Shown here: in pieces, positions 2,870 to 48,852 of the stretch
Position numbering within the stretch: position 1 is the first letter of the stretch
Layout of the letters: every line of letters begins with the position of its first letter
NCBI GenBank assembly: GCA_964016885.1
Contig: OZ024743.1
Coordinates: 71,858,001 to 71,922,000, forward strand
Reading direction: 5' to 3'
Length of the DNA: 64,000 nucleotides
Source of the DNA: Eledone cirrhosa
Lineage: Eukaryota
Notes under the pieces: model-generated
What the model was told of the DNA's origin: nothing
What the model saw: only the letters and a program-made list of their open reading frames with translations
Database searches by the model: none
Made by a program: the position numbers and the translations under genes

Positions 2870-3017
2870 ATGAAGAACTCAATGTAATCCAAATATCATG
2901 AAAGAGAAGATGTATTCAAAAATATTTCGATGAAAATCACAGGAAAACAGAGTCAAGATAAACTAATAAAAACAATGAACACAAACAAAGAACAAGTTCC
3001 TTATATTAATAAATTCA

Positions 3018-3147
3018 TCATTTTACGATCGTTTCTACGATATATATATGTGTTGGTATGTATATCATATAGATCTATGTAAAACATTTACAAACTATCA
3101 GAGGAAATATACATAACTTCACATATATATGCTGTCTTCAGAAATAA
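3018..3147 (-). ncRNA. Type I hammerhead with about 105 nt stem II region
   Basis: TTATTT-CTGAAGA-[ATATATATGTG...CACATATATAT]-GAAA-CGATCG-TA-AAATGA; palindromic stem III, GUA. Confidence 0.75.
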
Positions 3148-3253
3148 CTGTTTCTACTTTAGACACAAGGCCAGCAATAACCCAGTGCATTACTGGTACT
3201 TTATTTTATCGACCCCGTAAGGATGAAAGGCAAAGTCAATCTCGGCGGGATTT
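3148..3253 (-). mobile_element. Octopus-type tRNA-derived SINE, 5'-truncated
   Basis: CTGGTACTTTATTTTATCGACCCCGTAAGGATGAAAGGCAAAGT core, repeated at least 7 times in the window. Confidence 0.85.
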
Positions 3254-3650
3254 AATGAAGACAGCATATATATGTGAAGGTATGTATATTTCCTCTGATT
3301 GTTTGTAAATTTTTTACATAGATCTATATGATATACATACCAATACATATATATATCCTAGAAACGATCGTAAAATGATAAATTTTTTAATATAAGGAAC
3401 TTGTTCTTTGTTTTGTTCATTGTTTTTATTAGTTTATCTTGACTCTGTTTTCCTGTGATTTTCATCGAAATATTTTTTAATACATCTTCTCTTTTCATGA
3501 TATTTGGATTACATATATCATATACATACCAACACACATATATATCCTAGAAACGATAGTAAAATGATGAATCTTTTAATATAAGGAACTCGTTCTTTGT
3601 TTTTATTCATTGTCTTTATTAATATATATATATAAATAAATATATATATA

Positions 3651-4823: not shown

Positions 4824-4950
4824 TATATATAAATATATATAATAGAAGAAGTTAATATGCCCATGAGTACTAAGTACCCCTAGAAATATATAGGTTTTCT
4901 ATGATTTAAGGTTGTTCTATGGTATTAATTTGACATACTAGAACTATAAT

Positions 4951-5215
4951 ATTAAGATAAGCAGAACAAGCAAAATTCAACCAATTTTTAAAATAAATTA
5001 AAAAATATAATTTAAATATTTACCTATTCTTTTGGCCGTTACCGATCGGTTTCGCTTTGTAAAACACGAGAAATCCAATGGATTTCCAATGGAAAAGCAA
5101 AGTTCATCAGAGAAGCATTTTCCTTTCCTAGGGCTAAAGATAGGTAAATATTTAAATTATATTTTTTATTTATTTTAAAAAATTGGTTGAATTTTGCTTG
5201 TTCTGTTTATCTTAA
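4951..5215. repeat. Fold-back (arms about 4951-5027 and 5140-5215) enclosing a minus-strand HHR-like motif at 5034-5116
   Basis: CTGATGA-a-CTTTG...CAAAG-c-GAAA-CCGATCGG-TA; stem I weak. Confidence 0.65.
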
Positions 5216-5271
5216 TATAAATATATATATATATTAAAAAAAAAATATATATATATATAAATATATATATA

Positions 5272-5949: not shown

Positions 5950-6076
5950 TTCCACTGACGATTTATAAGTGCCCACCTAAATATATTCTTACATGAATAT
6001 ATATATTAGGCCTCTACATAAACTGGAAACATTCTCCCAACTTGTAGAAAACTTATAATGAAACAATTGTTTGGAA
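5950..6076 (+). ncRNA. Type I hammerhead with branched stem II
   Basis: TTCCA-CTGACGA-t-TTATAAGT...ACTTATAA-t-GAAA-CAATTG-TT-TGGAA; 5 bp stem I, 8 bp stem II, palindromic stem III, GUU. Confidence 0.85.
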
Positions 6077-6441: not shown

Positions 6442-8754
<2,313 letters not shown>

Positions 8755-8765
8755 AATATATAAAT

Positions 8766-8831
<66 letters not shown>

Positions 8832-8832
8832 A

Positions 8833-9057
8833 TATTTATTAAAATAACAGATTAAAGTTTAAGCAAAGAATCGGTGCTTTCACCCTTAACGGGATCTTTC
8901 AGAAGATCCCGTTAAGGGTGAAAGCAGCGATTCTTTGCATAAACTTTAATCTGTTATTTTAATAAATACTTGTTCTACGGTTCTTATATATTTGATATAT
9001 ATTTTCCTTATCGAGCCCTCTTTGGATTTTAGTCTTCAATTTTATTATTATTACTAT
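8833..9057. repeat. Near-perfect hairpin insertion (arms about 8833-8898 and 8903-8968) plus 3' extension
   Basis: Centre GATCTT-TCAG-AAGATC; same family ends at 32905-33035 and 49055-49090. Confidence 0.8.
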
Positions 9058-9082
9058 ATATATATATATATATATATATATC

Positions 9083-9119
<37 letters not shown>

Positions 9120-10377
9120 ATAGAGGGACATATTATACCTCCCCACCTTTTTCGGCAGGGTAATAGGATGAATGCCAGCCTACATTGAGACACTGCACTT
9201 GAATCAAGCGTATAGCTAAGGGAAAACTTCTACATGGTGTGTGAGACTCCTACTTACACCCCATGCAGTATACAAGATTAGCTGGGCAAACATTTTCGTG
9301 ATCAGTTGACCCCTAAAGTTAGCTTCCTAGCTTTCCAGATGTTCCCCTTCTCTTCAACTACTACGCTTACGGCATCTTTGAAAGAGAGAGAGCAAGCACG
9401 TCCACAAAATCCAGGCCACATTGGGGATGTTATGTCCAACATGGATTAAGATCGTAACATCTTTACACAACGCCACATCCAGGACGCCATTGTTATGCAT
9501 ATGAATAAATATAGAATTCTACAAAACATACTGTATTATTCGAATTAAAAGTTAGCTGGTGCATCATATATATATATATACATTGCTGGCGCACGCGCGA
9601 GCCTAAGATATTAGCACCTGAAATCGAATGTTAGTGTGTACTATGTGAAAAAATTGAGGTTAACAGCAAGATATATTTTACTTGTTGAAATATTTTTGTC
9701 TTACACTCTTTACTTACGAACGCCACAATATCAACAACAAGTACCAAAATAATTCTAAAATGCTTACAATACGGATTTTTGTAACCTGCCACAGACAATG
9801 AAAGCCGATATTTGAAAGATCGATATGGTTCGTTTTGTGAACTGACCAAGAAATGAGTAAGTCTAAGAAAATAATAGTATTAGATTTACTTGAAATCAAT
9901 ACTTTCAGCTGATTTGAAAAGGTTATACATTTTCCTAAACAATTGGTTTGTCAAGTTCTTATTGATTTAACTTTATGCAGGGCTTGATCAATTATGCCTA
10001 AAAGTTTCTGTATACATTTCAGAGTTTGTTTTTATCTTTATTTTGAACTTCAACTGAAACTAGGTGTTGAAAATGAAACAATGATAACGTAGCAGAGCCA
10101 TTTTAGCAATCGAATAGTCAACCACAAAACTTAAGTTCAATTTTCGATAATTCTTGTAATAGTACTGTCAATTTTGAGGTGTGAAAGATTTTCGTTCTCA
10201 TTCTGCGACCGGGTCACTTACACAAACTTTCAGTAGAATAAGGACAGTGACCAGATAGCAGAAAGGGTAGCAAGAAGTTCATAAATGACACTGGTATTAA
10301 AACAAACAAAAACTGAATATCACACATTTTATAATTATCTAACGCTCCAATAGTTTACACACACATACACAGAAGTT

Positions 10378-10415
<38 letters not shown>

Positions 10416-10541
10416 AGAAAAACCACAAGACCTCCATCTCAATTCTACTTTTGAAAAGCATAAGAGCTGTGAAACCGGTAAAGGAAACAAATAAATATTC
10501 TTAAAAAGATTCCAGTTGCATTTTCGATTTTATCTTTTTTC

Positions 10542-10580
<39 letters not shown>

Positions 10581-10582
10581 TA

Positions 10583-11163
<581 letters not shown>

Positions 11164-11511
11164 CAGGAATATACCAGTATTAAACTTGTTAGACTATTAT
11201 TCTCAGACGTTTCGCCATGAATCTTTCCTACATAAATATATATATACGTTGGAGGTACGAAAGCAATACCTATATATCATATAAGTAGTACTAGCTACAT
11301 ACCTATATAGTGTATGGATGATACTAGTATTTTGTAAAATATAGGTGGTACTAGCGTCGTACCTATATATCTTACTGCATTAGGCCTGCTTCTTATAAAA
11401 TATACTTCAGATCTGATAAACACTGTGTTCATATCAATCACTGTCGTCATACGCCTGAAGCATTCTAATGAATTGTAGCAATTTATTTTTTGACACAATT
11501 TTAAGACTCAC

Positions 11512-11593
<82 letters not shown>

Positions 11594-11597
<4 letters not shown>

Positions 11598-12498
11598 GAT
11601 TAAAAATTAGCTCAACAAAAAGTAGCCGTAATATTATATTATATTTAGAGTTAAAAACTCAAACTGTCCTTTACAATTAATTAGCTCAAAGAAAGAAGCA
11701 TTTCTGAGCCGTGAAATACAAGTTAATATAAATTAATATATGATAAACACAAAAGTGTTTGTATTGTAAAAGACGAAGTTAGCTAGAATGAAATGAAACT
11801 AATTCAAATAAATATATATAGTTTGCCTGTCTCGATTTAAAATAATAAATCAATAAAAACAATAAAAACAAACCCCTATTGGCAAATAGCCGTGATACCT
11901 ACTCTAAATATAATATAATATTACGGCTCCTTTTTGTTGAGCTAATTGTTAATCCCATATAAATGGCTGTTATTTCTAGCGCCATGAATATGAGATAGCT
12001 AGTGAGCTGGAAAACCTCGTGCAAAACCTCGTGCGTTTGCGCTAGTGAACCAGACCTCCTAAATTATTTCTCCTAAATTATTTCGAGGTGAAACATCCTA
12101 ATTTTTCTGGATACCTGTTGAGAAGCACAGAAAATTGAATAATTTCACTTTTTATACTATCGTTGCGAAACTTATTTGGATTTTGAAATTCAAATTCATC
12201 TGCGGAACCGGTTTGGATTTTAAAATTTAAATTTGTCCAGGTATCACGGCTATTTGCCAATATGGGTTTGTTTTTATTGTTTTTATTGATTTATTATTTT
12301 AAATCGAGACAGGCAAACTATATATATTTATTTGAATTAGTTTATTTCATTCTAGCAAACTTCGTCTTTTACAATACAAACATTTTTGTGTTTATCATAT
12401 ATTAATTTATATTAACTTGTATTTCACGGCTCAGAAATGCTTCTTTCTTTGAGCTAATTAATTGTAAAGGACTGTTTGAGTTTTTAACTCTAAATATA

Positions 12499-12504
<6 letters not shown>
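11594..12504 (+). mobile_element. 586 bp terminally redundant non-coding unit (11901-12504) preceded by an inverted arm (11594-11900)
   Basis: ACTCTAAATATA at 11901 and 12487; the inverted arm reads across the unit end into the unit start. Confidence 0.75.
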
Positions 12505-12530
<26 letters not shown>

Positions 12531-12537
<7 letters not shown>

Positions 12538-14064
12538 ATGCTTTGGGAGGGTCATGTTGCCAATAAGAAACACACGCACCAGTTGCTTTCAATCCGATTT
12601 ATTATAAATTAAATTTACAAATTTCCGGTTGGCTAGCCGGTTCCACAACCGGACGGTTGTTCATATATTGTCAAATTCTTTCGTCACACATTCTGTGACC
12701 TCTTCAATGACTGGGGATTCTTTTCTTTGTTTTTGTGCCTCTCCTTTGTTCTGTCCTACGCCATCTTGTTTTTGTGTGTGTTGTGTGCTTAGTTTGCGCA
12801 TGTGTTACATCCGGGTGTCTGTGTGAGTTTATATTGTTTATTTATTTGTTTATTTACATGTTACTGGTTGGTTGTTTGTTCTATGTGTGTGTGTGTTTTC
12901 ATTTTGTCCTTAATTGTAAGTTGTGATATTGCTATTCCATTCATGTTTTCTATTTAATTTTGGTTGGAGTTCATTTATGTTTATTGCCTCTGTGATTTGT
13001 TTAAACATTGCGTCTTTTCTGTGTGTAGATTCTATTTTTATTTCTATGTTCTGTAATTTACCCTTATGTTCTATTTTAGCATATTGGTGGAGTACAGGTG
13101 ATTCTTTTCTATCTTGAAGCTCTCGCCAGTGTTCATTTATCCGTTCTCCTATACTACGAGCTGTCTCACCTATGTACACTATATTCTTATCTCTACATTG
13201 TCCTTCAGTACATCTTATGCTATATACAACATTTATAGTTTAACAGTCAATATGGAGGCTTAGTTTACAGATTATACATTTCTTATCTATACAGCGAGGT
13301 CTTTGAAAAGGGTATGTATTGCTAATAAGTGTTTTTATGGAGGTACCTGGTTTTTCTATTATCTTAACATTGAGTTTATGTTTATCTAAGGCCCTTCCAA
13401 ATTTGTAAGCTAATTCACCTGTAGGGGATGTATTGATGAACATTACACTCTGGTATTTATTGCTATCATACCATGAGTTTATTCTATTAACCTTATTCCT
13501 AGTTCCTTCTGTTCTATTCCAAAATTTGCTCCTTATCACATAGGCAATAAACATAAATGAACTCCAACCAAAATTAAATAGAAAACATGAATGGAATAGC
13601 AACATCACAACTTACAATTAAGAACAAAATTAAAACACACACGCACATAGAACAAACAACCAACCAGTAACATGTAAATAAACAAATAAATAAACAAATA
13701 TAAACACACACAGACACCCGCAAACTAAGCACACAATACACACAAAAACAAGATGGCGTAGGACAGAATAAATGAGAGGCAGAAAAGCAAAGTAAAGAAT
13801 CACCATTCACTGAAGAGGTCACAGAATGTGTGACGAAATAACTTTTTCAATATATGAACAACCGTCCGTTAGAGGAACCGGTCAGCCAACCGGAAATTTA
13901 TAAATTCTTAAATTTATAAATTTAATTTATAATAAATCGGTGATTGCAAATGGTGCGTGTGTTTCTTATTGGCAACATGACCCTCCCAAAGCATAACAAT
14001 ATCCGTTTCAACACATGTTTTCAGATAATGTATCTTGCTAAACAAATTCAGAAACGTAATAAAT
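12531..14064 (-). mobile_element. PLE family A remnant (minus, 12531-13537) joined to an inverted copy of its own 3' end (plus, 13538-14064)
   Basis: YIGETARSIGERINEH ORF 12910-13179; linker ORF 13240-13537; mirror-image 3' UTR. Confidence 0.9.
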
Positions 14065-14089
14065 ATATATATATAAATACATCAAAATG

Positions 14090-17574
<3,485 letters not shown>

Positions 17575-17584
17575 CGCCAACACA

Positions 17585-17657
17585 TGATGTGTTGGCGTAA
17601 ATGGTAGCACAGTGGTCCGGATAACCAAAGATTTGGGTTCGACTCCCATGTACGTCA
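17585..17657 (+). pseudogene. tRNA-like sequence (tRNA pseudogene or SINE head)
   Basis: A-box TGGCGTAAATGG, B-box GGTTCGACTCC, acceptor TGATGTG/TACGTCA, anticodon arm TGGT-CCGGATA-ACCA; D-stem imperfect. Confidence 0.65.
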
Positions 17658-27923: not shown

Positions 27924-28405
27924 ATAAGATCAAAAGATGGTTAAAGGAGTTCCATGTATTTTATTATGCGCATTTCAAAAACAAACATCATCATGCAATA
28001 ATATTTGTGTTTTCATCAGATAAAACAGGAGAACATGATATGAAGGCTAAAAAACACTTGAGGATAGTGCAGTTTTAAATCTACATATGAAAAGTGGTTT
28101 TAGATTGATGCGTGATATTGGGAAAAATATTTTATTTAGAGAGGGGGGGGATGAAAAAGGGGGACGAGATGAGAGGGAGAGATGGGTAAAAATAAAATAT
28201 TTTTCCCAATATCACACATCAATCTAAAACCACTTTTCATATGTAGATTTAAAACTGCACTATCCACAAGTGTTTTTTAGCCTTCATATCATGTTCTCCT
28301 GTTTTATCTGATGAAAACACAAATATTATTGCATGATGATGTTTGTTTTTGAAATGCGCATAATAAAATACATGGAACTCCTTTAACCATCTTTTGATCT
28401 TATAT
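27924..28405. repeat. About 215 bp near-perfect inverted repeat with an intact HHR in each arm (27959-28025 minus, 28302-28368 plus)
   Basis: TTTTAT-CTGATGA-[AAACACAAATAT...ATGTTTGTTTTT]-GAAA-TGCGCA-TA-ATAAAA. Confidence 0.9.
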
Positions 28406-28795
28406 TATATATATATATATATAAATGAAAATTAGAGTTAAAACTCCAATTGAAACCCTGTAACTATTAAGCTCCAAGTATAAAATACTGAGCCGTATAA
28501 TAATATATATGCAGTAAGAAACACAGTAAACCGTGTGTCTAATATTACAAGGGTTGAAAAACCACATTTGTTTGAAATATTTAACCAAGAAGCAGACAGA
28601 ATGATAAAATAAAAATATATTAATTTTCATTTATATTTCTGCTCCCTCACAAGTCGAGCTTATTAAGTTGTGTGTGTTGGACTGTTGTTTCTATTCAATG
28701 CACGCTTATCACGTTTGACTAGCGGCGCACGGCGTGATAAATTTCATCTTTCTGTGTGAACGTTGGTACATAGTGTTTGGTGCATTTAATCAGAT

Positions 28796-28876
28796 TCTCT
28801 CGCTGATGATGCCTAAGGATTATCTGTTACAAACACACTCAGGGCGAAACAGATTAGGGATAATCTGTCCGAGAGA
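28796..28876 (+). ncRNA. Canonical type I hammerhead with stable stem III
   Basis: TCTCTCG-CTGATGA-t-GCC...GGC-GAAA-CAGATTA ggga TAATCTG-TC-CGAGAGA; inside a fold-back with arms about 28504-28562 and 28929-28987. Confidence 0.9.
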
Positions 28877-28979
28877 TAAAATGGTTATTGAGGCGGTTTG
28901 TATAATAATATATTTTTATTTTATAATTTTTTTCAACCCTTGAAATATTAGACACACAGTTTACTGTGTTTCTTACTGC

Positions 28980-29142: not shown

Positions 29143-29148
<6 letters not shown>

Positions 29149-30033
29149 GGAAAAAATGAAATGAAATTTCATTTCTCACTCTTAGTACGGCCGTTTCTTA
29201 AATATAAGTATGAACACGTACATACATATATGTATACAGACGTACAGTAGTATGTATATATATATAAATACATGCACACATATATATATATGTACGTATG
29301 GATTCACCGAGCATTTATCATAATACTCGGTATGTTTGTAAACAAACATCCCGAATTAAGCCGTACAGTGTCTAGCAACAATCGTTGCTCATTTGTTCAA
29401 CACTGATAAAGGAACGTTGTACTAGTTTCAAGCTTATTAGCTATCGTCAGCAACGTATACCTTCCTGCCAGATGGTTGAACGTCTGAAAGTATATACTTT
29501 CCTTATGCATATTAACGGCTGAGTAGCCTAATTTGCATATCGAGTGAGTTAATCGGCCGGGTTACCGAAAACGATAAACGGAAAAAATGAAACGAAATTT
29601 CATCTCTCACTCTTACTACGGCTGTTACTTAAATATAAGTATGTATACGTACATACATATATGTATACAGACGTACAGTAGTATGTATATATATATATAC
29701 ATACATGCACACATATATATATGTACGTATGGATTCACCGAACATTTATTATAATGCTCGGTGTGTTTGTAAACAAACATCCCGAATTAAGCCGTACAGT
29801 GTCTAGCAACCATCGTTGATCATTTGTTCAACACTGACAAAGGAACGCTGTACTAGTTTCAAGCTTATTAGCTATCGTCAGCAACATATACCTCCCTGTC
29901 AGATGGTTGAACGTCTGAAAGTATATACTTTTCTTATGCATATTAACGGCTGAGCAGCCTAATTTGCATATCGAGTGAGTTAATCGACCGGGTACCGAAA
30001 ACAATAAACGGAAACAATGAAACGAAATTTCAT
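29143..30033 (-). repeat. Tandem 431 bp units (about 2.07 copies), one HHR per unit (29414-29456, 29845-29887)
   Basis: Unit starts 29143, 29574, 30004; ACGTTG-CTGACGA-tAGCT aata AGCTt-GAAA-CTAG-TA-CAACGT. Confidence 0.9.
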
Positions 30034-31649: not shown

Positions 31650-32364
31650 TTAGTGTGCGGCCCTCCCCCGAATATTTGTGCGGAAAATGTGTTCAGCCTG
31701 TCTACAATTGACAATTATGTCCGACCTATAGTTTATGGAAAATTTTAATTTAATTATTTCTGCCGCCTCAGCCAGGCATGACCTGCAGTTGTTTCTGTCA
31801 ATGGGGAGTTGTGCCACGCGTCTTTTCACTGACCACGAGATCTGGGGTTCGATGTTCCTGTCCTTGAGGTCCCAGATCAAATCGGCCAGTCTGGTTTGGG
31901 ATCGTTTCAGCCTATGTTTAAAGAAACTACTATGGTTATACCAGCGCTCCTTAAACGTAGTGGATGTCGCACCTATATATGAGTCTCTTTATTGCCGGCT
32001 GTGACATCACACCGGTAAACAATGTTTTTAACGAGGCACTCCCCGTTTAGTGGGCATTCGGCCCGGTTTTGCAGTTTCAGTTGGGTGTAACCAGTGTGAT
32101 GGCACGTTGGCGGTTGGTGGCATGCGGTGTGGATCTGGTATGTCGGTTGTTGTGTTGTGTGTGTGGTTTCGTTCTGGATTGTGGTGGTGGTTTGTTGTGG
32201 AGCAACCATGTGTTTTCTTATTTTTGTCCTCTTAGTGTGGGCTATTGTGTGGCCTAGATTTGGTGATGTTGAGAAAGATAATTTTACAGTGTGTCTATTG
32301 AAGAGCTTGTGTTATTTATGTGTGGGTGGAAAAGATTGGTCGAGAGCCCTGAAGAAGGTTCCCG
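31650..32364 (-). mobile_element. PLE family B-like GIY-YIG remnant
   Basis: FFRALDQSFP...LFNRHTVKLSFSTSPN; CPLNGECLVKNIVYRC; YIGATSTTFKERWYNH; CRSCLAEA. Confidence 0.85.
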
Positions 32365-33960: not shown

Positions 33961-33965
<5 letters not shown>

Positions 33966-34535
33966 CAGGAAAGAAGGTTTACATGGTTTGCTATACAATA
34001 AAGTTTTTAATCACATAGCTTACATTTGTTTCACTGAACTGGTATGTCTAGAGATCGCTATTCGCTTAATTTTGCGTTACTCGATCGCCAATACAGAATT
34101 ATAACCAGTCAGATCTTCGGAGCATGCGAGAATGAAGAAAATACACAGGCAAGAAAAGAAAAGAAAATACAGGCTACTATATGAAGTAGTAATGGCATTC
34201 AATTAGAACAATAACAACAATTACAACAATGCTATCAATAAATTATTTACCCACAGAAATATATTCATTAAGTATACTATATCCTTCACAAGTCTATACC
34301 ACACAATTGTCTGTAAGTACCTCATCTACCAACAATCTTACTCCTTCTCAGCTGCTGCCATCATTTGATCCTAAATCCTAGATTTTCTCATTTCACTACT
34401 ACAATGTTACTTTACCTTCTTTTTGCCATAATTACAATTAGCACGCTTATCTCTTTGCATGTATGTATATTTTTGTACGAGTGTATATTGATGTGTATGT
34501 ATGTGTCTATGTACACATGCATGTGTATATATGCG

Positions 34536-34574
<39 letters not shown>

Positions 34575-35275
34575 ATGTGTGTGTGTGTATGCGTAAATAT
34601 ATGCGTATATTAATTCGTTAACCTCTGTATTAACTCAACAACTATTTAGCTTTGACAGTGGTCCCACTCATGTATACTGTTGAAGATGAAGAGAGAGACT
34701 GTAAAAACTAGCTCATCTTTATAATTTAAAATTGATATACACTACGATACTTTGTACATGCCAACGCTTCATTTTGCCTTATGACAGCTAGTTTTACACG
34801 CCGTAACATTAGATACATTATATACCCCCCACTTAAGTAATGTCAGGGTCTCCTTAAATAATTTATTGATAGCATTGTTGTAATTGTTGTTATTGTTCTA
34901 ATTGAATGCCATTACTACTTCATATAGTAGCCTGTATTTTCTTTTCTTTTCTTGCCTGTGTATTTTCTTCATTCTCGCATGCTCCGAAGATCTGACTGGT
35001 TATAATTCTGTATTGGCGATCGAGTAACGCAAAATTAAGCGAATAGCGATCTCTAGACATACCAGTTCAGTGAAACAAATGTAAGCTATGTGATTAAAAA
35101 CTTTTTTGTATAGCAAACCATGTAAACCTTCTTTCCTGATTTATTATTACTCCAAGTGTTTACAACATAGGAATTACGGCATACCCGCAGCATCACTATG
35201 AAAACGCCTTGTTGAGTCAAACCATAACTGGACTTCACCTAAGTGGACTGCATTTAACTATTATTTGTTAATCCG

Positions 35276-35277
<2 letters not shown>
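33961..35277. repeat. Fold-back insertion (arms about 33961-34248 and 34857-35143) with a HHR in each arm (34014-34126 minus, 34978-35090 plus)
   Basis: CATGCT-CCGAAGA-[CTGACTGGT...ACCAGTTCAG]-GAAA-CAAATG-TA-AGCTATG; paralogue of 6569-7297. Confidence 0.85.
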
Positions 35278-35321
<44 letters not shown>

Positions 35322-35980: not shown

Positions 35981-36507
35981 GAGGTATCCACTGTAAGTTG
36001 CGGGGTCTATTCTGTATGAAGAACTCAATGTAATCCATATGTTGGAAATGTTGTAGGTTAAGATAAATCTCAGAAAACAATAAAACATTAAAAGGAAAAC
36101 AGAGTCATGATATAAGTTAAAACAATGAAATAAAAAAATCAAGTCATTAGAGATATTCTTCACTGCTTTACGATCGTGTCTAGAAACGATCGTAAAGCAG
36201 TGAAGTATATCTCTAATGACTTGATTTTTTATTTCATTGTTTTAACTTATATATATATATACACACACACACATATATACACACACGCACACACACATAT
36301 ATGTATATATATATATATATATATCGTTGCTGAAATTGTTTAGCAAGATTCTTTATCTGTGTTGAAATTTATAATTTAATTTATAATAAATTGGAGTGAA
36401 AGCTACTGGTGCGTGTGTTTCTAATTGGCAACATGACCCTCCCAAAATATAACAATATATATATAAATATATATGTATATATATATATGTATATATATAT
36501 TTGTATA

Positions 36508-36998
36508 GGCATACGTCAAAACGGCCGGTCTCAAAAGTGAAACTAATTGTTGACAGTTACGTACACGTTATAAGAGTTATTTAAGTTTATATATATAAAA
36601 TAAAGGAGCAAATAAGAGCATGATATGAAGTCAGTCATGTGTGTGTGTGTATATATGTGTGTGTGTGTATATATGTGTGTGTGTGTGTAAACGAATGTAA
36701 AAGTACACACACATATACACTTATATATGCACACATACACACTATAATATATACACGTGTGTGTGTATATATGTGTGTGTGTGTAAAATTCTAGGAAACC
36801 TTCTCTATGCCCTACATATATTCTTTTACATTCGTTTACACGCACACACAGATATATACACACACACATGACTGACTTCATATCATGCTCTTATTTGGTC
36901 CTTTATTTTATATATATAAATTTAAATAACTCTTATAACATGTACGTAACTGTCAAAAATTAGTTTCACTTTTGAGACCGGCCGTTTTGACGTATGCC
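36508..36998. repeat. Fold-back insertion in (TA)n/(TG)n
   Basis: GGCATACGTCAAAACGGCCGG... versus ...CCGGCCGTTTTGACGTATGCC. Confidence 0.85.
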
Positions 36999-38452: not shown

Positions 38453-39061
38453 ATATATGTGAAAAAATGGGGAGAAGAATACTGCAGGTTGCACATGGAT
38501 AACATGTTATAAAATGAGTCCCTCATCAGTGATTTGCCAACGATCATAGATATTTCATTGCATTAAAAATCATATACCTCACGTTGGTGCAATAATAACT
38601 AAATTAAGTTATTAGGACAATTAAAACGCGTAAAGCGAGTGAGACAAGTAAACAACAAAGAGGAAAGCTAACCGTAGATAGGAAGGGCACAAGCTACATA
38701 GTTATTCTGTCAGCATAAGCTGGGTGAAAATATGTGCGCGTAGAAAAAAGACCTTTCGAGATGAATCCAAATGTAAGAAAGAAGGAAATTGTATTCGTCG
38801 CGAACGGGTTGAAGTGAGAAGGGGAGAAACAGTGAGTGAGTGAGTGGAAGTGTGAGGAAGAGGTCAGTAGAGAGAACGTGTTAACTGACATGACAGAGGG
38901 GGCGAAAAAAAGTAAGAGAAACAGAGAAAACGAGGGAGCAGTAAGAGAGAGAGAGAAAAAAACAGAATCGCAGTTTAGGTAAATATATGTGAAAAAATGG
39001 GGAGAAGAATACTGCAGGTTGCACATGGATAACATGTTATAAAATGAGTCCCTCATCAGTG
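38453..39061 (-). mobile_element. 530 bp non-coding unit with 79 bp terminal direct repeats, carrying an atypical hammerhead-like motif
   Basis: 38453-38531 matches 38983-39061; homologous to 45836-46487. Confidence 0.7.
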
Positions 39062-40036: not shown

Positions 40037-40040
<4 letters not shown>

Positions 40041-40887
40041 AGACGTAAAATAAGAAAATTATAAAATTAACTTACTTACTAAAATATCACTTCCAACTAA
40101 TTAGTTTCTGGAATGGAGTAAATATATTTTCCGAAGAATAATATATAGAAGCATTCCGTCGTCAGGAAAGTCTATTCTCATGTAAGTTTCCAGGCAAAGC
40201 GAGGACACTGGAAACTTATTAAAAAATAATTCAGTGGATAGGAAATAGCAAAGCGTGGACTGAATTCCAAGCCATTGAGAAAATCACTGCCTTTACATCT
40301 GTGGCAAATTCAAAAAGAATCAAACACGTGACATCGAGGTCAATCAGTGGAAAGTGGTTTGCTAATAAGACAGCGGCCTGCCTACAACCGTAGCAGCAGT
40401 CATGGCCAATATTGCTCGACATATAATTTGGAGATAATAATAAAGAATTCATATCTAGTAACATATAAAATACATACAGATGCATATCAATGCTAGCAAA
40501 TATATAGGTTTTGTCTTAATAACAGTGTGGTTCAATGCATGGGGCTGCAGAACAATAATATAAGAGACGTAAAATAAGAAAATTATAAAATTAACTTACT
40601 TACTAAAATATCACTTCCAACTAATTAGTTTCTGGAATGGAGTAAATATATTTTCCGAAGAATAATATATAGAAGCATTCCGTCGTCAGGAAAGTCTATT
40701 CTCATGTAAGTTTCCAGGCAAAGCGAGGACACTGGAAACTTATTAAAAAATAATTTAGTGGATAGGAAATAGCAAAGCGTGGACTGGATTCCAAGCCATT
40801 GAGAAAATCACTGGCTCTACGTCTGTGGCAAATTCAAAAAGATTCGAACACGTGACATCGAGGTCAATCAGTGGAAAGTGGTTTGCT

Positions 40888-40892
<5 letters not shown>
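40037..40892 (-). repeat. Tandem 524 bp units (about 1.6 copies), one HHR per unit (40089-40171, 40613-40695)
   Basis: ACTTTC-CTGACGA-c-GGAATG...CATTCC-a-GAAA-CTAATTAG-TT-GGAAGT; (TA)n both sides. Confidence 0.9.
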
Positions 40893-40968
<76 letters not shown>

Positions 40969-41187
40969 GTTTACCAAACATAGAAGTAATGAGCTGCAGA
41001 GCAACATGAAAGCACTACTCCGAAGACACCAAATTACCAATGGAATTGTTGTGAAAGCTGACAAGACCTCTAACGTGTATACCATGGATATCGATACATA
41101 CAACAGCTTCATACGCAAGGAACTACACAAAAATATAGAAAAACAAGTGAAACTACGCTAGCAAATATTAACATCGAGGCATACAAG

Positions 41188-42453
41188 GTGGTGAAGAATC
41201 TCAAGATAGACGATAGAACCGAGCCGATTATACCCACAACCCCCACCTTTAACCTGAAGGACCATAAGGTAAATTTTGACTTTAACCCTAAGATTAGACT
41301 CATATGCCCTTCTAAACCAGACATAGGAAAAATTAACAAACATATACTTGACAGAGTAATAACTCAATTGAAAAAGAAAATAGAAATTAAATTATGGGGC
41401 AACACTAGCGAAGCAATTCGCTGGTTTAATAACGTTAAGAACAAGAATAAATCTAAGTTTATACAATTTGACATAGACGAATACTACTCTTCAATCTCAC
41501 CCGGCACTTTACGTAAGGCCATATCGTTTGCTAAAGTCAATTCCGACCTAACGGAGGACGAAATTAATATTATTCTAGAAGCTAGAAAAACTATTATCAA
41601 CTTTGATAACTGCTACTGGGAACTTAAGGACAGACCCACAAACTTCGACATTACCATGGGTTCCAACGACTCAGCGGAGGTCACCGATCTTGTGGGAATT
41701 TACATAGCCCACATACTACATGGTAAATTTAGTAATCTACAGGGGGGAATATATAGAGATGACGGGCTCTTATTAGTTAATAACTTAAATAACCCAAATC
41801 TTGAAAGGCTACGGAAAAACATTAGAAAATCTTTTAGTGAACTGGGTCTAAAAATAACGTACGAATACAATCTTAAAGTAGTAACTTTTCTAGACGTAAC
41901 TCTTAATTTAAATACCGGACTGATACGACCCTTCCACAAGATAAATGAGAACCTTACCTATATCAATTCTAACTCAAACCACCCACTTTCGATGATCAAA
42001 TCGGTTCCCCGTAGTATTTCTCTTAGAATCTCTCGCCTATCGTCTGACACTGAGATTTTTAGTGAACATGCTGAATACTATAATAAAGCATTAAGGAATG
42101 CCGACCACCGGGATACAATAGAATACATTGATAAGAATCTCCATAACACACATAGCTCTACACGAAATCAAGGAATACGTAACCAGGGTACTGAAATACA
42201 AGCGCACACACGGGGTACCACAAGACTTACTAATAATAGAAAATCATCACCAAATAAATCACGTTGTAGAAAGTATATCTGGTATAATCCCATTTTTAAT
42301 GCTTCGATTAGTACAAAACTATCTCTTTCATTTTTTAAGTTAATCAACAAGCATTTCCCTAGTTCCCATAAATACAGTAACATTCTGAACTCTAAAACTA
42401 TTAAACTATCATACTCCACGGCACCAAACCTTGAAGCATACATAAAAACTTAA
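41188..42453 (+). CDS. Penelope-like reverse transcriptase core (YRDD), open 421 aa segment
   Basis: ORF track plus RT motifs listed above. Confidence 0.9.
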   Translation: MVKNLKIDDRTEPIIPTTPTFNLKDHKVNFDFNPKIRLICPSKPDIGKINKHILDRVITQLKKKIEIKLWGNTSEAIRWFNNVKNKNKSKFIQFDIDEYYSSISPGTLRKAISFAKVNSDLTEDEINIILEARKTIINFDNCYWELKDRPTNFDITMGSNDSAEVTDLVGIYIAHILHGKFSNLQGGIYRDDGLLLVNNLNNPNLERLRKNIRKSFSELGLKITYEYNLKVVTFLDVTLNLNTGLIRPFHKINENLTYINSNSNHPLSMIKSVPRSISLRISRLSSDTEIFSEHAEYYNKALRNADHRDTIEYIDKNLHNTHSSTRNQGIRNQGTEIQAHTRGTTRLTNNRKSSPNKSRCRKYIWYNPIFNASISTKLSLSFFKLINKHFPSSHKYSNILNSKTIKLSYSTAPNLEAYIKT

Positions 42454-43518
42454 CTTAAAGCAATTAAACAACACTACAAAACAAAATAGTTTAATAACAG
42501 ATGAGCATAACGTAATATCTGCCTCCCAACAACACTAAATGGGAGACAGGTATTACACAACCCACCTGTACTGCTATCACAACCTATCCATGGTATACCC
42601 GCTATCCACAACAAAAACTGTAACTGCCACCTACCTGAAACATGTCCATTGAAGAATAAATGCCTCAAGTCCAACATTGTTTACCAATGCACTGTTGAAT
42701 CGAGTGTCCAGAAATGGTATTACATCGGGTCTACCACTACCTCCTTTAAATCTCGCTGGTACCGTCATCGATTCTCAATTAAACATCCTGATCACCGTTT
42801 TGTGACCACGCTCGCCAACAAGACCTGGCAACTCCGTGAACGCAACCAACAGTTCACCTTGAAATGGGATATACTTTCCAGCGCTAGTGCATATCGGAGT
42901 GGATTGAAGGTTATGTAACCTTGAACTCTTTTACATATTAAAATCAAAAAATAAATTACTAAATGAAAGAATCGAACGATCATTATACTGAAAGCTAAAT
43001 TCTCTCACTATAAAATAAATTAACATTCGAACCCGTAACTATAAAATTGCTTTCTAGCTAACCACTTTCTCTTCCCCGACACTACATACCCTGCTTATCA
43101 CTATAAATGGAAACTTAGTGCAATTCGCAGATTACTACTAATGAACCCAATGTACACCCACCCCATAGCTTTCGTCTGTCCCCTCTCGATCTCGCCCTCT
43201 CTATCCATTCTTCTCTCTCTCTCTCCCCCTAGGTCCACCCCCCTCTCCACATCTATGAAACTGCCCTCTGGGGCAATAAATAATCCCAATCATGACTATC
43301 AACGCATCGCTTAAGGTGGTCGCTTTAAGAGTAACCAGTATAATAAAACCCCTACCACAACATTTTGATTAAGATATCTACAAACCACTCTCTCCCATTT
43401 CTCCAACCCCTGTATATATATCTCTTTCTCTCCCTCTCTCCTCCTTTTCTCTCTTCCTTTTCTACTCTATCTTCCCCAATAACCTCACTTAAGGGAATTT
43501 ACATTGTACATTTTAACC

Positions 43519-47964: not shown

Positions 47965-48042
47965 GGATCTAGCTGTTGAAATGGCAGGAGCTCAGCTCTC
48001 GGGGCCCCGAATCTTTCATATATATATATATATATATATATA

Positions 48043-48852
48043 GGAAAATGTTCCGGACCGCGACGGCTGAGCTCAATCCGTTTCGAAGGCTATTTCTGGA
48101 CTAAATTAGAGTTTTAGCGTCTCCCTGTATCTCTTCTTCTTACTTCCTTCCACTCCCTCTCCTCTTCCTTTTCCTTTTTCCTCTTTTGCTTAATCTGAAG
48201 CAGCCCATCGAGCTCAGTACGCCCACCCCAGTAAATTCTATATACCACTGGTCGAAAACGCAATACCAACTGAAAGTATAGCAGCTGTTTTAGACTCTAC
48301 GTTTTTTTAAAATTATTTTTTATCATTTAATGTTTTAATATTGTTATTATATTTATTTATTATTTTTTAATTTTTTAATTTCAATTTATTAACTTTATAA
48401 TTTTATAACTTCCCACACTCAGATTCCTCTAGAATTCTTTTTTCGCATGCTTTCTAGTTAGCCTAATTTCGTCCACACTCCTTAGGATTTGCTGTATAGA
48501 ATTCACTTTCAACGCTTGATTAGCTCCACCCACTCCCTCATTGTTCTACAAGTAAAGTTCAGCCAACCCCACCTTCCACCCACCACCATGAAATATTTAA
48601 TTGTATATACAAGAAATTTTGACCAATCCTTTCGAGAACTACAATTTCCCATATAAGGAATTACCCCTTGAAAAGTTCGACTATTTATTACCACGCTACA
48701 AATATAATTTAGTCCAGAAATAGCCGTCGAAAGGGCTTGAGCTCTGCTGTCGGGGTCTTGAAAATATTCCTAACCCACTCTACTACCCTAATAATTGAGT
48801 ACTCTGGTGCGTTCCTTACCACACTGGTTCCTTACGACACTTCCTTCGTTAT
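48043..48852 (+). mobile_element. Fold-back non-coding insertion (pLTR-like); family ends also at 32382-32525, 38325-38395, 39268-39313
   Basis: 48043-48108 is the reverse complement of about 48706-48770. Confidence 0.7.

Follow-up and report, generated by a model that had tools for sequence, protein, structure and literature searches.

Insertions of Penelope-like elements (PLEs) are described as partial tandems, frequently accompanied by an inverted 5'-truncated copy and by a tail of 30-40 bp at one end, and several PLE clades favour (TA)n targets (PMC8557442, PMC8969392). In the rotifer element Pen2a, the tail is a continuation into the beginning of the ORF (PMC3846280). The PLE of the anole cuts and extends both target strands in vitro; its reverse transcription has two internal starts whose spacing equals the tail, and hammerhead cleavage is dispensable (PMC11167929). 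Hammerheads lie in PLE pLTRs (PMC4209133), and canonical hammerheads are given as absent from the clades with an N-terminal endonuclease (Naiad, Chlamys; PMC8557442). The origin of the tandem and inverted ends of PLEs is still called open (PMC8557442, PMC11167929). In a cephalopod, Octopus vulgaris, repeat annotation lists 31 recently active Penelope-like families (PMC13282606).

The window analysed here, the whole stretch of 64,000 nt from Eledone cirrhosa, is AT-rich, divided by (TA)n arrays, and contains RT and GIY-YIG fragments. We consider it likely that the locus at 11595-12507 arose when a short non-autonomous PLE passenger inserted once, its head-to-tail RNA being copied in two target-primed reverse transcriptions. 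The architecture of such an insertion is already published and will not surprise a specialist.

Structure of the insertion at 11595-12507

The insertion, its target and the hairpins named in the text are as follows (arm ends are counted throughout from the 3' end of hairpin H4).

11513-11594: left (TA)n target array (TA runs)
11595-11651, minus: read-through part of the inverted arm, a copy of the unit's first 57 nt (55/57 identity); its outer 36-40 nt form the tail, which the forward arm lacks
11652-11900, minus: inverted 5'-truncated copy of the unit's 3' part, an inverted pLTR-like arm (aligned to 12239-12486)
11900/11901: head-to-head arm junction, blunt; the forward arm starts within the 3' strand of hairpin H4
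11901-12486, plus: full 586-nt non-coding unit (GC 30%, at most 72 codons stop-free, no intact hammerhead)
11926-11943, plus: hairpin H5 (GCTC/GAGC stem), the tail hairpin at the unit start, at equal offset in the 28.4-kb relative described below
12364-12472, plus: conserved 3' RNA domain, a 12-bp closing helix H0 (12364-12375 with 12461-12472) around hairpins including H3 (12428-12455)
12478-12490, plus: hairpin H4 (GAGTT/AACTC stem), on the end-to-start junction; its motif has four occurrences in the window, all within this family and the 28.4-kb relative
12487-12507, plus: unit restart, 21 nt, running into (TA)n with a TA overlap of 4 nt
12508-12533: right (TA)n target array (TA runs)

Pairwise alignment showed that the reverse complement of the inverted arm (11595-11900) corresponds to the unit's last 248 nt (12239-12486; 244 matches, 4 substitutions and 1 indel), followed without a break by its first 57 nt (11901-11957; 55/57 identical), the BLAST E values of the two matches being 1e-125 and 1e-19. 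A first-pass annotation had claimed that the inverted arm crosses the unit's end-to-start junction seamlessly, and this is what the alignment bears out; the length of ~265 nt that it gave for the unit end counted the overlap twice. A self-comparison of the window with (TA)n masked beforehand, the dot-plot type of check proposed in the annotation, recovered both inverted matches (11639-11900 is the inverse of 12239-12499, and 11595-11651 that of 11901-11957). The plus unit had also been said to restart after 586 nt, and 21 identical nt do follow from 12487, with a period of 586, before (TA)n is reached at 12507.

The arms, 306 nt inverted and 607 nt forward, lie head-to-head and are embedded in (TA)n, with the inverted 5'-truncated copy adjoining the 5' end (11595-11900 versus 12239-12507). 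One 586-nt unit and the 21-nt restart make up the forward arm, which amounts to 1.04 units in direct orientation. Outwardly, both arms end at AT-rich points with 4-5 nt of TA overlap; these points are 40 nt apart and have a small hairpin between them. Since the inverted arm ends at +57 and the forward arm at +17, the extension is on one end alone.

No stop-free stretch of the unit exceeds 72 codons in six frames, and its GC content of 30%, in a non-coding sequence, agrees with the retrozyme description (non-coding, GC below 50%). Within the unit body, short exact tandem duplications are seen at 12011-12034 (12 nt) and 12056-12083 (14 nt), and a long near-perfect hairpin at 12164-12236 bears a weak resemblance in its arms to the H4 region (score 19) and is possibly an old fold-back of the junction.

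Among described systems, Pen2a_Av of Adineta vaga (PMC3846280; scheme in PMC8557442) shares the head-to-head inverted 5'-truncated copy, the (TA)n target and a tail of ~40 nt, and there, too, the extension of one arm is the start of the next unit. Unlike in that scheme, the present unit is 586 nt long, has no ORF and no hammerhead, and is preceded by only 4 nt of direct upstream pLTR; a partner was not found in the window. Since most canonical PLE pLTRs are reported to carry a hammerhead, the state of the 586-nt unit counts against a PLE reading. Metazoan non-LTR retrozymes (PMC7229834; bioRxiv 10.64898/2026.07.22.740005) resemble the unit in being short, low in GC, non-coding, structured and thought to ride on PLEs. 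Their type I hammerhead motif has counterparts in the 28.4-kb relative and in the 431-nt and 524-nt tandems of the window; in contrast, the 586-nt unit has no hammerhead, forms no multimer here, exceeds the usual length of 220-390 nt and has an inverted arm. Another comparison is with MRC1 and other non-autonomous Chlamys PLEs (PMC8557442), which are likewise non-coding PLE passengers that form pLTRs and head-to-tail insertions; they differ in being green algal and in having 3' ends common to known autonomous partners, whereas no autonomous PLE sharing the 3' end of the 586-nt unit was found in the 64-kb window.

A conserved fold spans the unit junction

Two further insertions of the window are related to the one described above.

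10579-10914: second copy of the family (copy 2), a fold-back with a small hairpin near 10771-10788 at its centre; its arms end at -68 and about +11
28424-28979, plus: distant relative with a ~435-nt unit and the same layout; type I hammerhead motif at 28796-28876 and 15 nt of junction read-through

Copy 2 is ~80% identical to the 586-nt unit (BLAST). Its inversion point differs from that of the locus insertion, and its snap-back at a small internal hairpin is like the palindromic junctions described in PMC3846280. The 28.4-kb relative aligns to the unit family with a score of 54, the highest of 1000 shuffles reaching 44, and its homology with the 586-nt unit extends past the junction into the unit start. 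A shared 3' motif pattern has 4 matches in the window, all in these two families, and 0 in 100 shuffles. The type I hammerhead motif of the relative lies on the same strand, in relation to the unit, as the fold of the 586-nt unit. The tails of copy 2 and of the relative, ~80-86 nt, exceed the published 30-40. The first-pass annotation had expected other copies to cross the junction as well. This holds for the relative: an exact 15-mer terminates its inverted arm and is repeated where its forward arm starts, with no third occurrence in the window (chance expectation 0.00004). Copy 2 is weak evidence of a crossing when taken alone, since its longer arm extends only ~11 divergent AT-rich nt beyond the junction hairpin.

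The 3' domain folds with z scores of -4.2 to -5.1 in 4/4 copies. In helix H0, 46 of 48 cells are paired across four sequences, and 5 of the 12 pairs are changed on both sides in a compensatory manner. Pairing is 97%, as against 37-51% in slid controls, and the fold has conserved G-U pairs. One divergent sequence supplies all five two-sided changes, and the structure itself was obtained from the same four sequences, so that this covariation compares two lineages and is no family survey. Folding of the 586-nt unit is strand-biased (z -4.58 for plus, -2.43 for minus). Hairpin H5 folds weakly on its own (z -0.98); a hairpin of its GCTC/GAGC type follows H4 after 22 nt in one family and 21 nt in the other. 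The fold conserved between the two diverged families thus spans the end-to-start junction and, since its homology continues past that junction, from H4 to H5, the conserved element is whole only in head-to-tail or circular RNA.

The arms of the three insertions have six ends, at -68/-70, about +11/+16/+17 and +57, that is, at three AT-rich sites. All six lie in AT-rich linkers beside hairpins, and 6/6 reach (TA)n; the five ends with a measurable template show a TA overlap of 3-6 nt. The two full-length forward arms have their starts within the H4 3' strand, at -3 and +1, an agreement to which we assign a chance probability of 2-3% (our own estimate, n = 2), and it is on these two arms that a fixed stop at H4 rests. 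In the 28.4-kb relative the forward arm starts at 28621, ~250 nt from the hammerhead cut site at 28869, and falls 70 nt short of a full round; the stop therefore tracks H4, not the priming site. Comparable features are known from Poseidon PAc of Anolis carolinensis (PMC11167929), in which two internal starts of reverse transcription flank a stem-loop just past the unit junction, giving rise to the tail, and whose target, also AT-rich, is cut and extended on both strands in vitro. PAc differs in that it is coding and hammerhead-bearing and in that its starts lie in a stem-loop that is AC-rich and has no homology with the DNA being cut, whereas here a 3-6 nt TA overlap is seen and there are three start zones.

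A motif scan allowing up to 2 core mismatches found no hammerhead in the 586-nt unit. A decayed hammerhead at 11990 (17/20 nt agreeing with the hammerhead core at 29.4 kb, E 4.7) was rejected, being equalled by 39 of 150 shuffles. Rfam, run on 6500-14500 and on the unit, returned generic hairpins alone, below gathering scores; it is uninformative on ribozymes here, because the hammerhead of the 28.4-kb relative, which served as a control, was missed too. A pistol-like resemblance is putative at best. A covariance model of H0-H5 retrieved from the window its 4 training copies together with part of copy 2 (E 0.02), the best outside match having an E of 0.14. No new family member was found in the window with this model, nor an autonomous PLE with this 3' domain, so that mobilization by a PLE is something we infer. 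In prokaryotic genomes, the motif scan hit 63 scattered loci, close to our own estimate for chance, and 0/63 were recognized by the model with an E of 1 or below. The unit bodies of the other short elements had no convincing similarity to the 586-nt unit (raw local scores 24-53, AT-rich), and no multimer of the 586-nt unit family was found in the window.

Template, mechanism and competing explanations

The insertion can be read as the product of a PLE because its inverted 5'-truncated copy, its tail of 30-40 bp at one end and its (TA)n target match the published pattern. This signature of an inverted pLTR plus tail (PMC8557442, PMC3846280, PMC11167929), which the first-pass annotation overlooked, is common to the locus insertion and the adjacent coding PLE. 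Since the published spacing of start sites equals the tail, the tail corresponds to the read-through of the end-to-start junction that the annotation had seen. An ORF is not expected in a passenger, and the element is therefore not filed as an autonomous PLE. Its assignment to the retrozymes was rejected, as it has no type I hammerhead per repeat and 1.04 direct units instead of two or more. By the hammerhead test it is not a retrozyme; it works like a PLE passenger.

In the first-pass annotation, the template was a circle or a head-to-tail multimer, and the insertion the DNA footprint of a circular or tandem RNA. A head-to-tail or circular template is indeed needed, with a terminal redundancy of at least 57 nt; a circle is possible, neither required nor shown, and a linear read-through transcript of a partial tandem suffices. 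The RNA nature of the intermediate finds support in the sense-strand fold, with its compensatory changes and conserved G-U pairs, and in the same-strand hammerhead motif of the 28.4-kb relative. The circularity does not, the unit being without an intact ribozyme. Direct tandems of hammerhead-bearing units, of 431 nt and 524 nt, are present in the window and show that head-to-tail donors exist for this class of element.

We propose that such a donor would be transcribed across its junction, yielding an RNA longer than one unit. A PLE RT/GIY-YIG protein supplied from elsewhere would bind the junction-spanning structure in trans and cut both strands of the (TA)n array, and each DNA end would then prime reverse transcription at one of two adjacent internal sites flanking H5. 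One cDNA would end after 306 nt. The other would cover the whole unit and halt at the upstream copy of H4, either at the RNA 5' end or where structure or bound protein blocks the enzyme. With the two cDNA ends joined, the read-through would appear as the PLE tail.

What the two diverged passenger families have in common is a junction structure of ~200 nt, with matching start zones and a matching stop. This structure is a minimal candidate for the cis-element of priming and a motif for locating the autonomous partner. Neither this family nor a shared junction fold in cephalopod passengers is described in the accessible literature, which comprised few subscription papers and no repeat databases; the family may already sit in a repeat library.

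A different template is conceivable, namely a covalently closed 586-nt circular RNA, retrozyme-like, which the PLE machinery would copy once round before stalling at H4. Completeness of the conserved domain only across the junction, a forward arm of one unit plus 21 nt and a relative with a hammerhead motif would all suit a circle, and metazoan retrozymes do form circles that have been proposed as PLE templates (PMC7229834; bioRxiv 10.64898/2026.07.22.740005). We nonetheless regard this as unlikely: the 586-nt unit lacks an intact hammerhead, the family has no multimer in the window, and in the relative the start of the forward arm is ~250 nt away from the hammerhead cut, the arm lacking 70 nt of a complete round. 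Moreover, the main substrate of the anole PLE is unprocessed RNA (PMC11167929). Equally doubtful is the broader proposal that a small RNA circle made without a ribozyme, or else a precisely processed RNA of one unit plus a little more, is the PLE template, with one junction structure docking the protein, setting three priming sites and stopping synthesis after exactly one round. If it were true, passenger insertions would serve as natural maps of the signals at which PLEs start and stop, and there would be a hammerhead-independent route to retrozyme-like circles.

Explanations that dispense with a PLE fare worse. Arrays of (TA)n are themselves fragile and palindromic, and long inverted repeats in a TA target suit a DNA-level event, be it a fold-back transposon of the MITE type or a replication template switch on a pre-existing tandem; in the window, 22 of 58 inter-(TA)n segments have an inverted match of at least 40 nt. 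Such an event is very improbable in view of ends that are asymmetric and clustered, the absence of symmetric TIRs reaching both ends (the 40-nt extension of one arm matches the interior), a strand-specific fold with G-U pairs and RT-coding PLEs of identical layout. More improbable still is a non-autonomous DIRS1-like element read on the minus strand, with ITRs, an internal complement and a right extension, and integrating from a DNA circle. Here the formal fit is good (ITR of 262-268 nt, body, rICR of 57 nt, ITR and an extension of ~36-44 nt); element sizes are inside the published ranges, and an internal complement of one terminal extension beside the repeat is typical of these elements (PMC3266345, PMC7192593). 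However, DIRS1 is defined by a left ICR that overlaps the right ICR at a 3-bp circular junction (PMC3266345, PMC7192593), whereas at the locus a left ICR is missing, the sequence after 11957 being unmatched to the other terminus (best local scores 11-19). Nor are the termini fixed, since there are three end zones and two inversion points and they merge into (TA)n, and no tyrosine recombinase was found among the 10 window ORFs scanned. Least probable of all is an artefact of assembly or library, a fold-back chimera, although the assembly is scaffolded (200-N gap at 2670-2869) and inverted repeats among (TA)n are difficult to assemble (PMC8557442). The arms differ at 7 sites, of which 6 are substitutions (Jukes-Cantor distance 0.020), and when copy 2 and the 28.4-kb relative are used as outgroups, each arm has two derived changes. 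It is this distribution over both arms that makes an artefact, a possibility raised in the first-pass annotation, unlikely; in addition, the layout is repeated at homologous positions in the second family. The reading as a PLE passenger copied from head-to-tail RNA is thus the one retained.

The adjacent coding PLE and other repeats of the window

Immediately to the right of the insertion lies an element that served as an internal positive control.

12534-14062, minus: adjacent coding PLE (GIY-YIG, hammerhead motif) with inverted arm and tail

All ten anchored ends of its family in the window lie in (TA)n. Seven of them stop 23 nt after an ATG, and three extend as tails of 47-64 nt that are in frame and stop-free. 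Compared with whole homologous proteins, none of the tail peptides was significant (10, 82 and 34 of 100 nulls). A test against the N-termini of homologous RT proteins, run after the whole-protein test, aligned two of the three in register (the top-3 sum was reached by 0-1 of 500 nulls, the best single match by 9-19 of 500, with shuffled or internal controls); the third peptide gave no signal. As two of the three match the N-termini of homologues, the tail of this family, too, would be the start of the next unit, which lends moderate support to junction read-through in a true PLE of this window.

Pfam, applied to 10 ORFs, gave 7 matches, a count that includes one ORF with two GIY families (four GIY-YIG, one RVT_1, one zf-RVT), and none in 4 ORFs. 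One RT of the window has its best protein match, at 66%, in Octopus vulgaris, which suits a cephalopod host. Fragments of a second RT/GIY-YIG family, interrupted by stops or (TA)n, are found at 15821-17654, 31650-32311 and 41074-42918, and the 200-N scaffold gap at 2670-2869 lies within an RT-coding PLE copy.

The head-to-head layout is common in the window: by our own reading, 13 of the 22 inter-(TA)n segments with a long inverted match are non-repetitive head-to-head insertions, the rest being simple sequence. Several further repeats lie between the arrays. At 29146-30033 (minus), the 431-nt unit forms a direct tandem of ~2.06 copies with a minimal hammerhead motif per copy, which fits a non-LTR retrozyme. 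The partial direct tandem of the 524-nt unit (40038-40889, minus; 321/328 identical) is placed between two (TA)n arrays and has a hammerhead motif per copy. A head-to-head pair at 27926-28401 has arms that are 99% identical, a hammerhead motif per arm and a purine-rich spacer. At 38453-39061, a perfect 79-nt direct repeat recurs with period 530 around a purine-rich interior in which no hammerhead was found, and an inter-(TA)n segment at 5955-6075 contains a hammerhead-like motif with a very long stem II.

Another family, also non-coding, has inverted arms plus a ~170-nt tail and is represented at 6570-7296 and 33963-35281, the latter copy having ~570 nt of other sequence between its arms; over ~10 nt, the outer end of this family resembles the tail end of the 586-nt unit. 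Its ends are also resembled by the first 10 nt of a unique 352-nt segment (11161-11512) that lies between (TA)n arrays and has three short internal repeats. Fold-back or inverted insertions beside (TA)n were also noted at 2882-3617, where a dispersed repeat occupies the loop (2882-3514), and at 8836-9054, 36115-36247, 36508-36998, 48041-48772 and 4845-5218; the minus strand of the last has, by eye, a hammerhead-like core with a long stem II.
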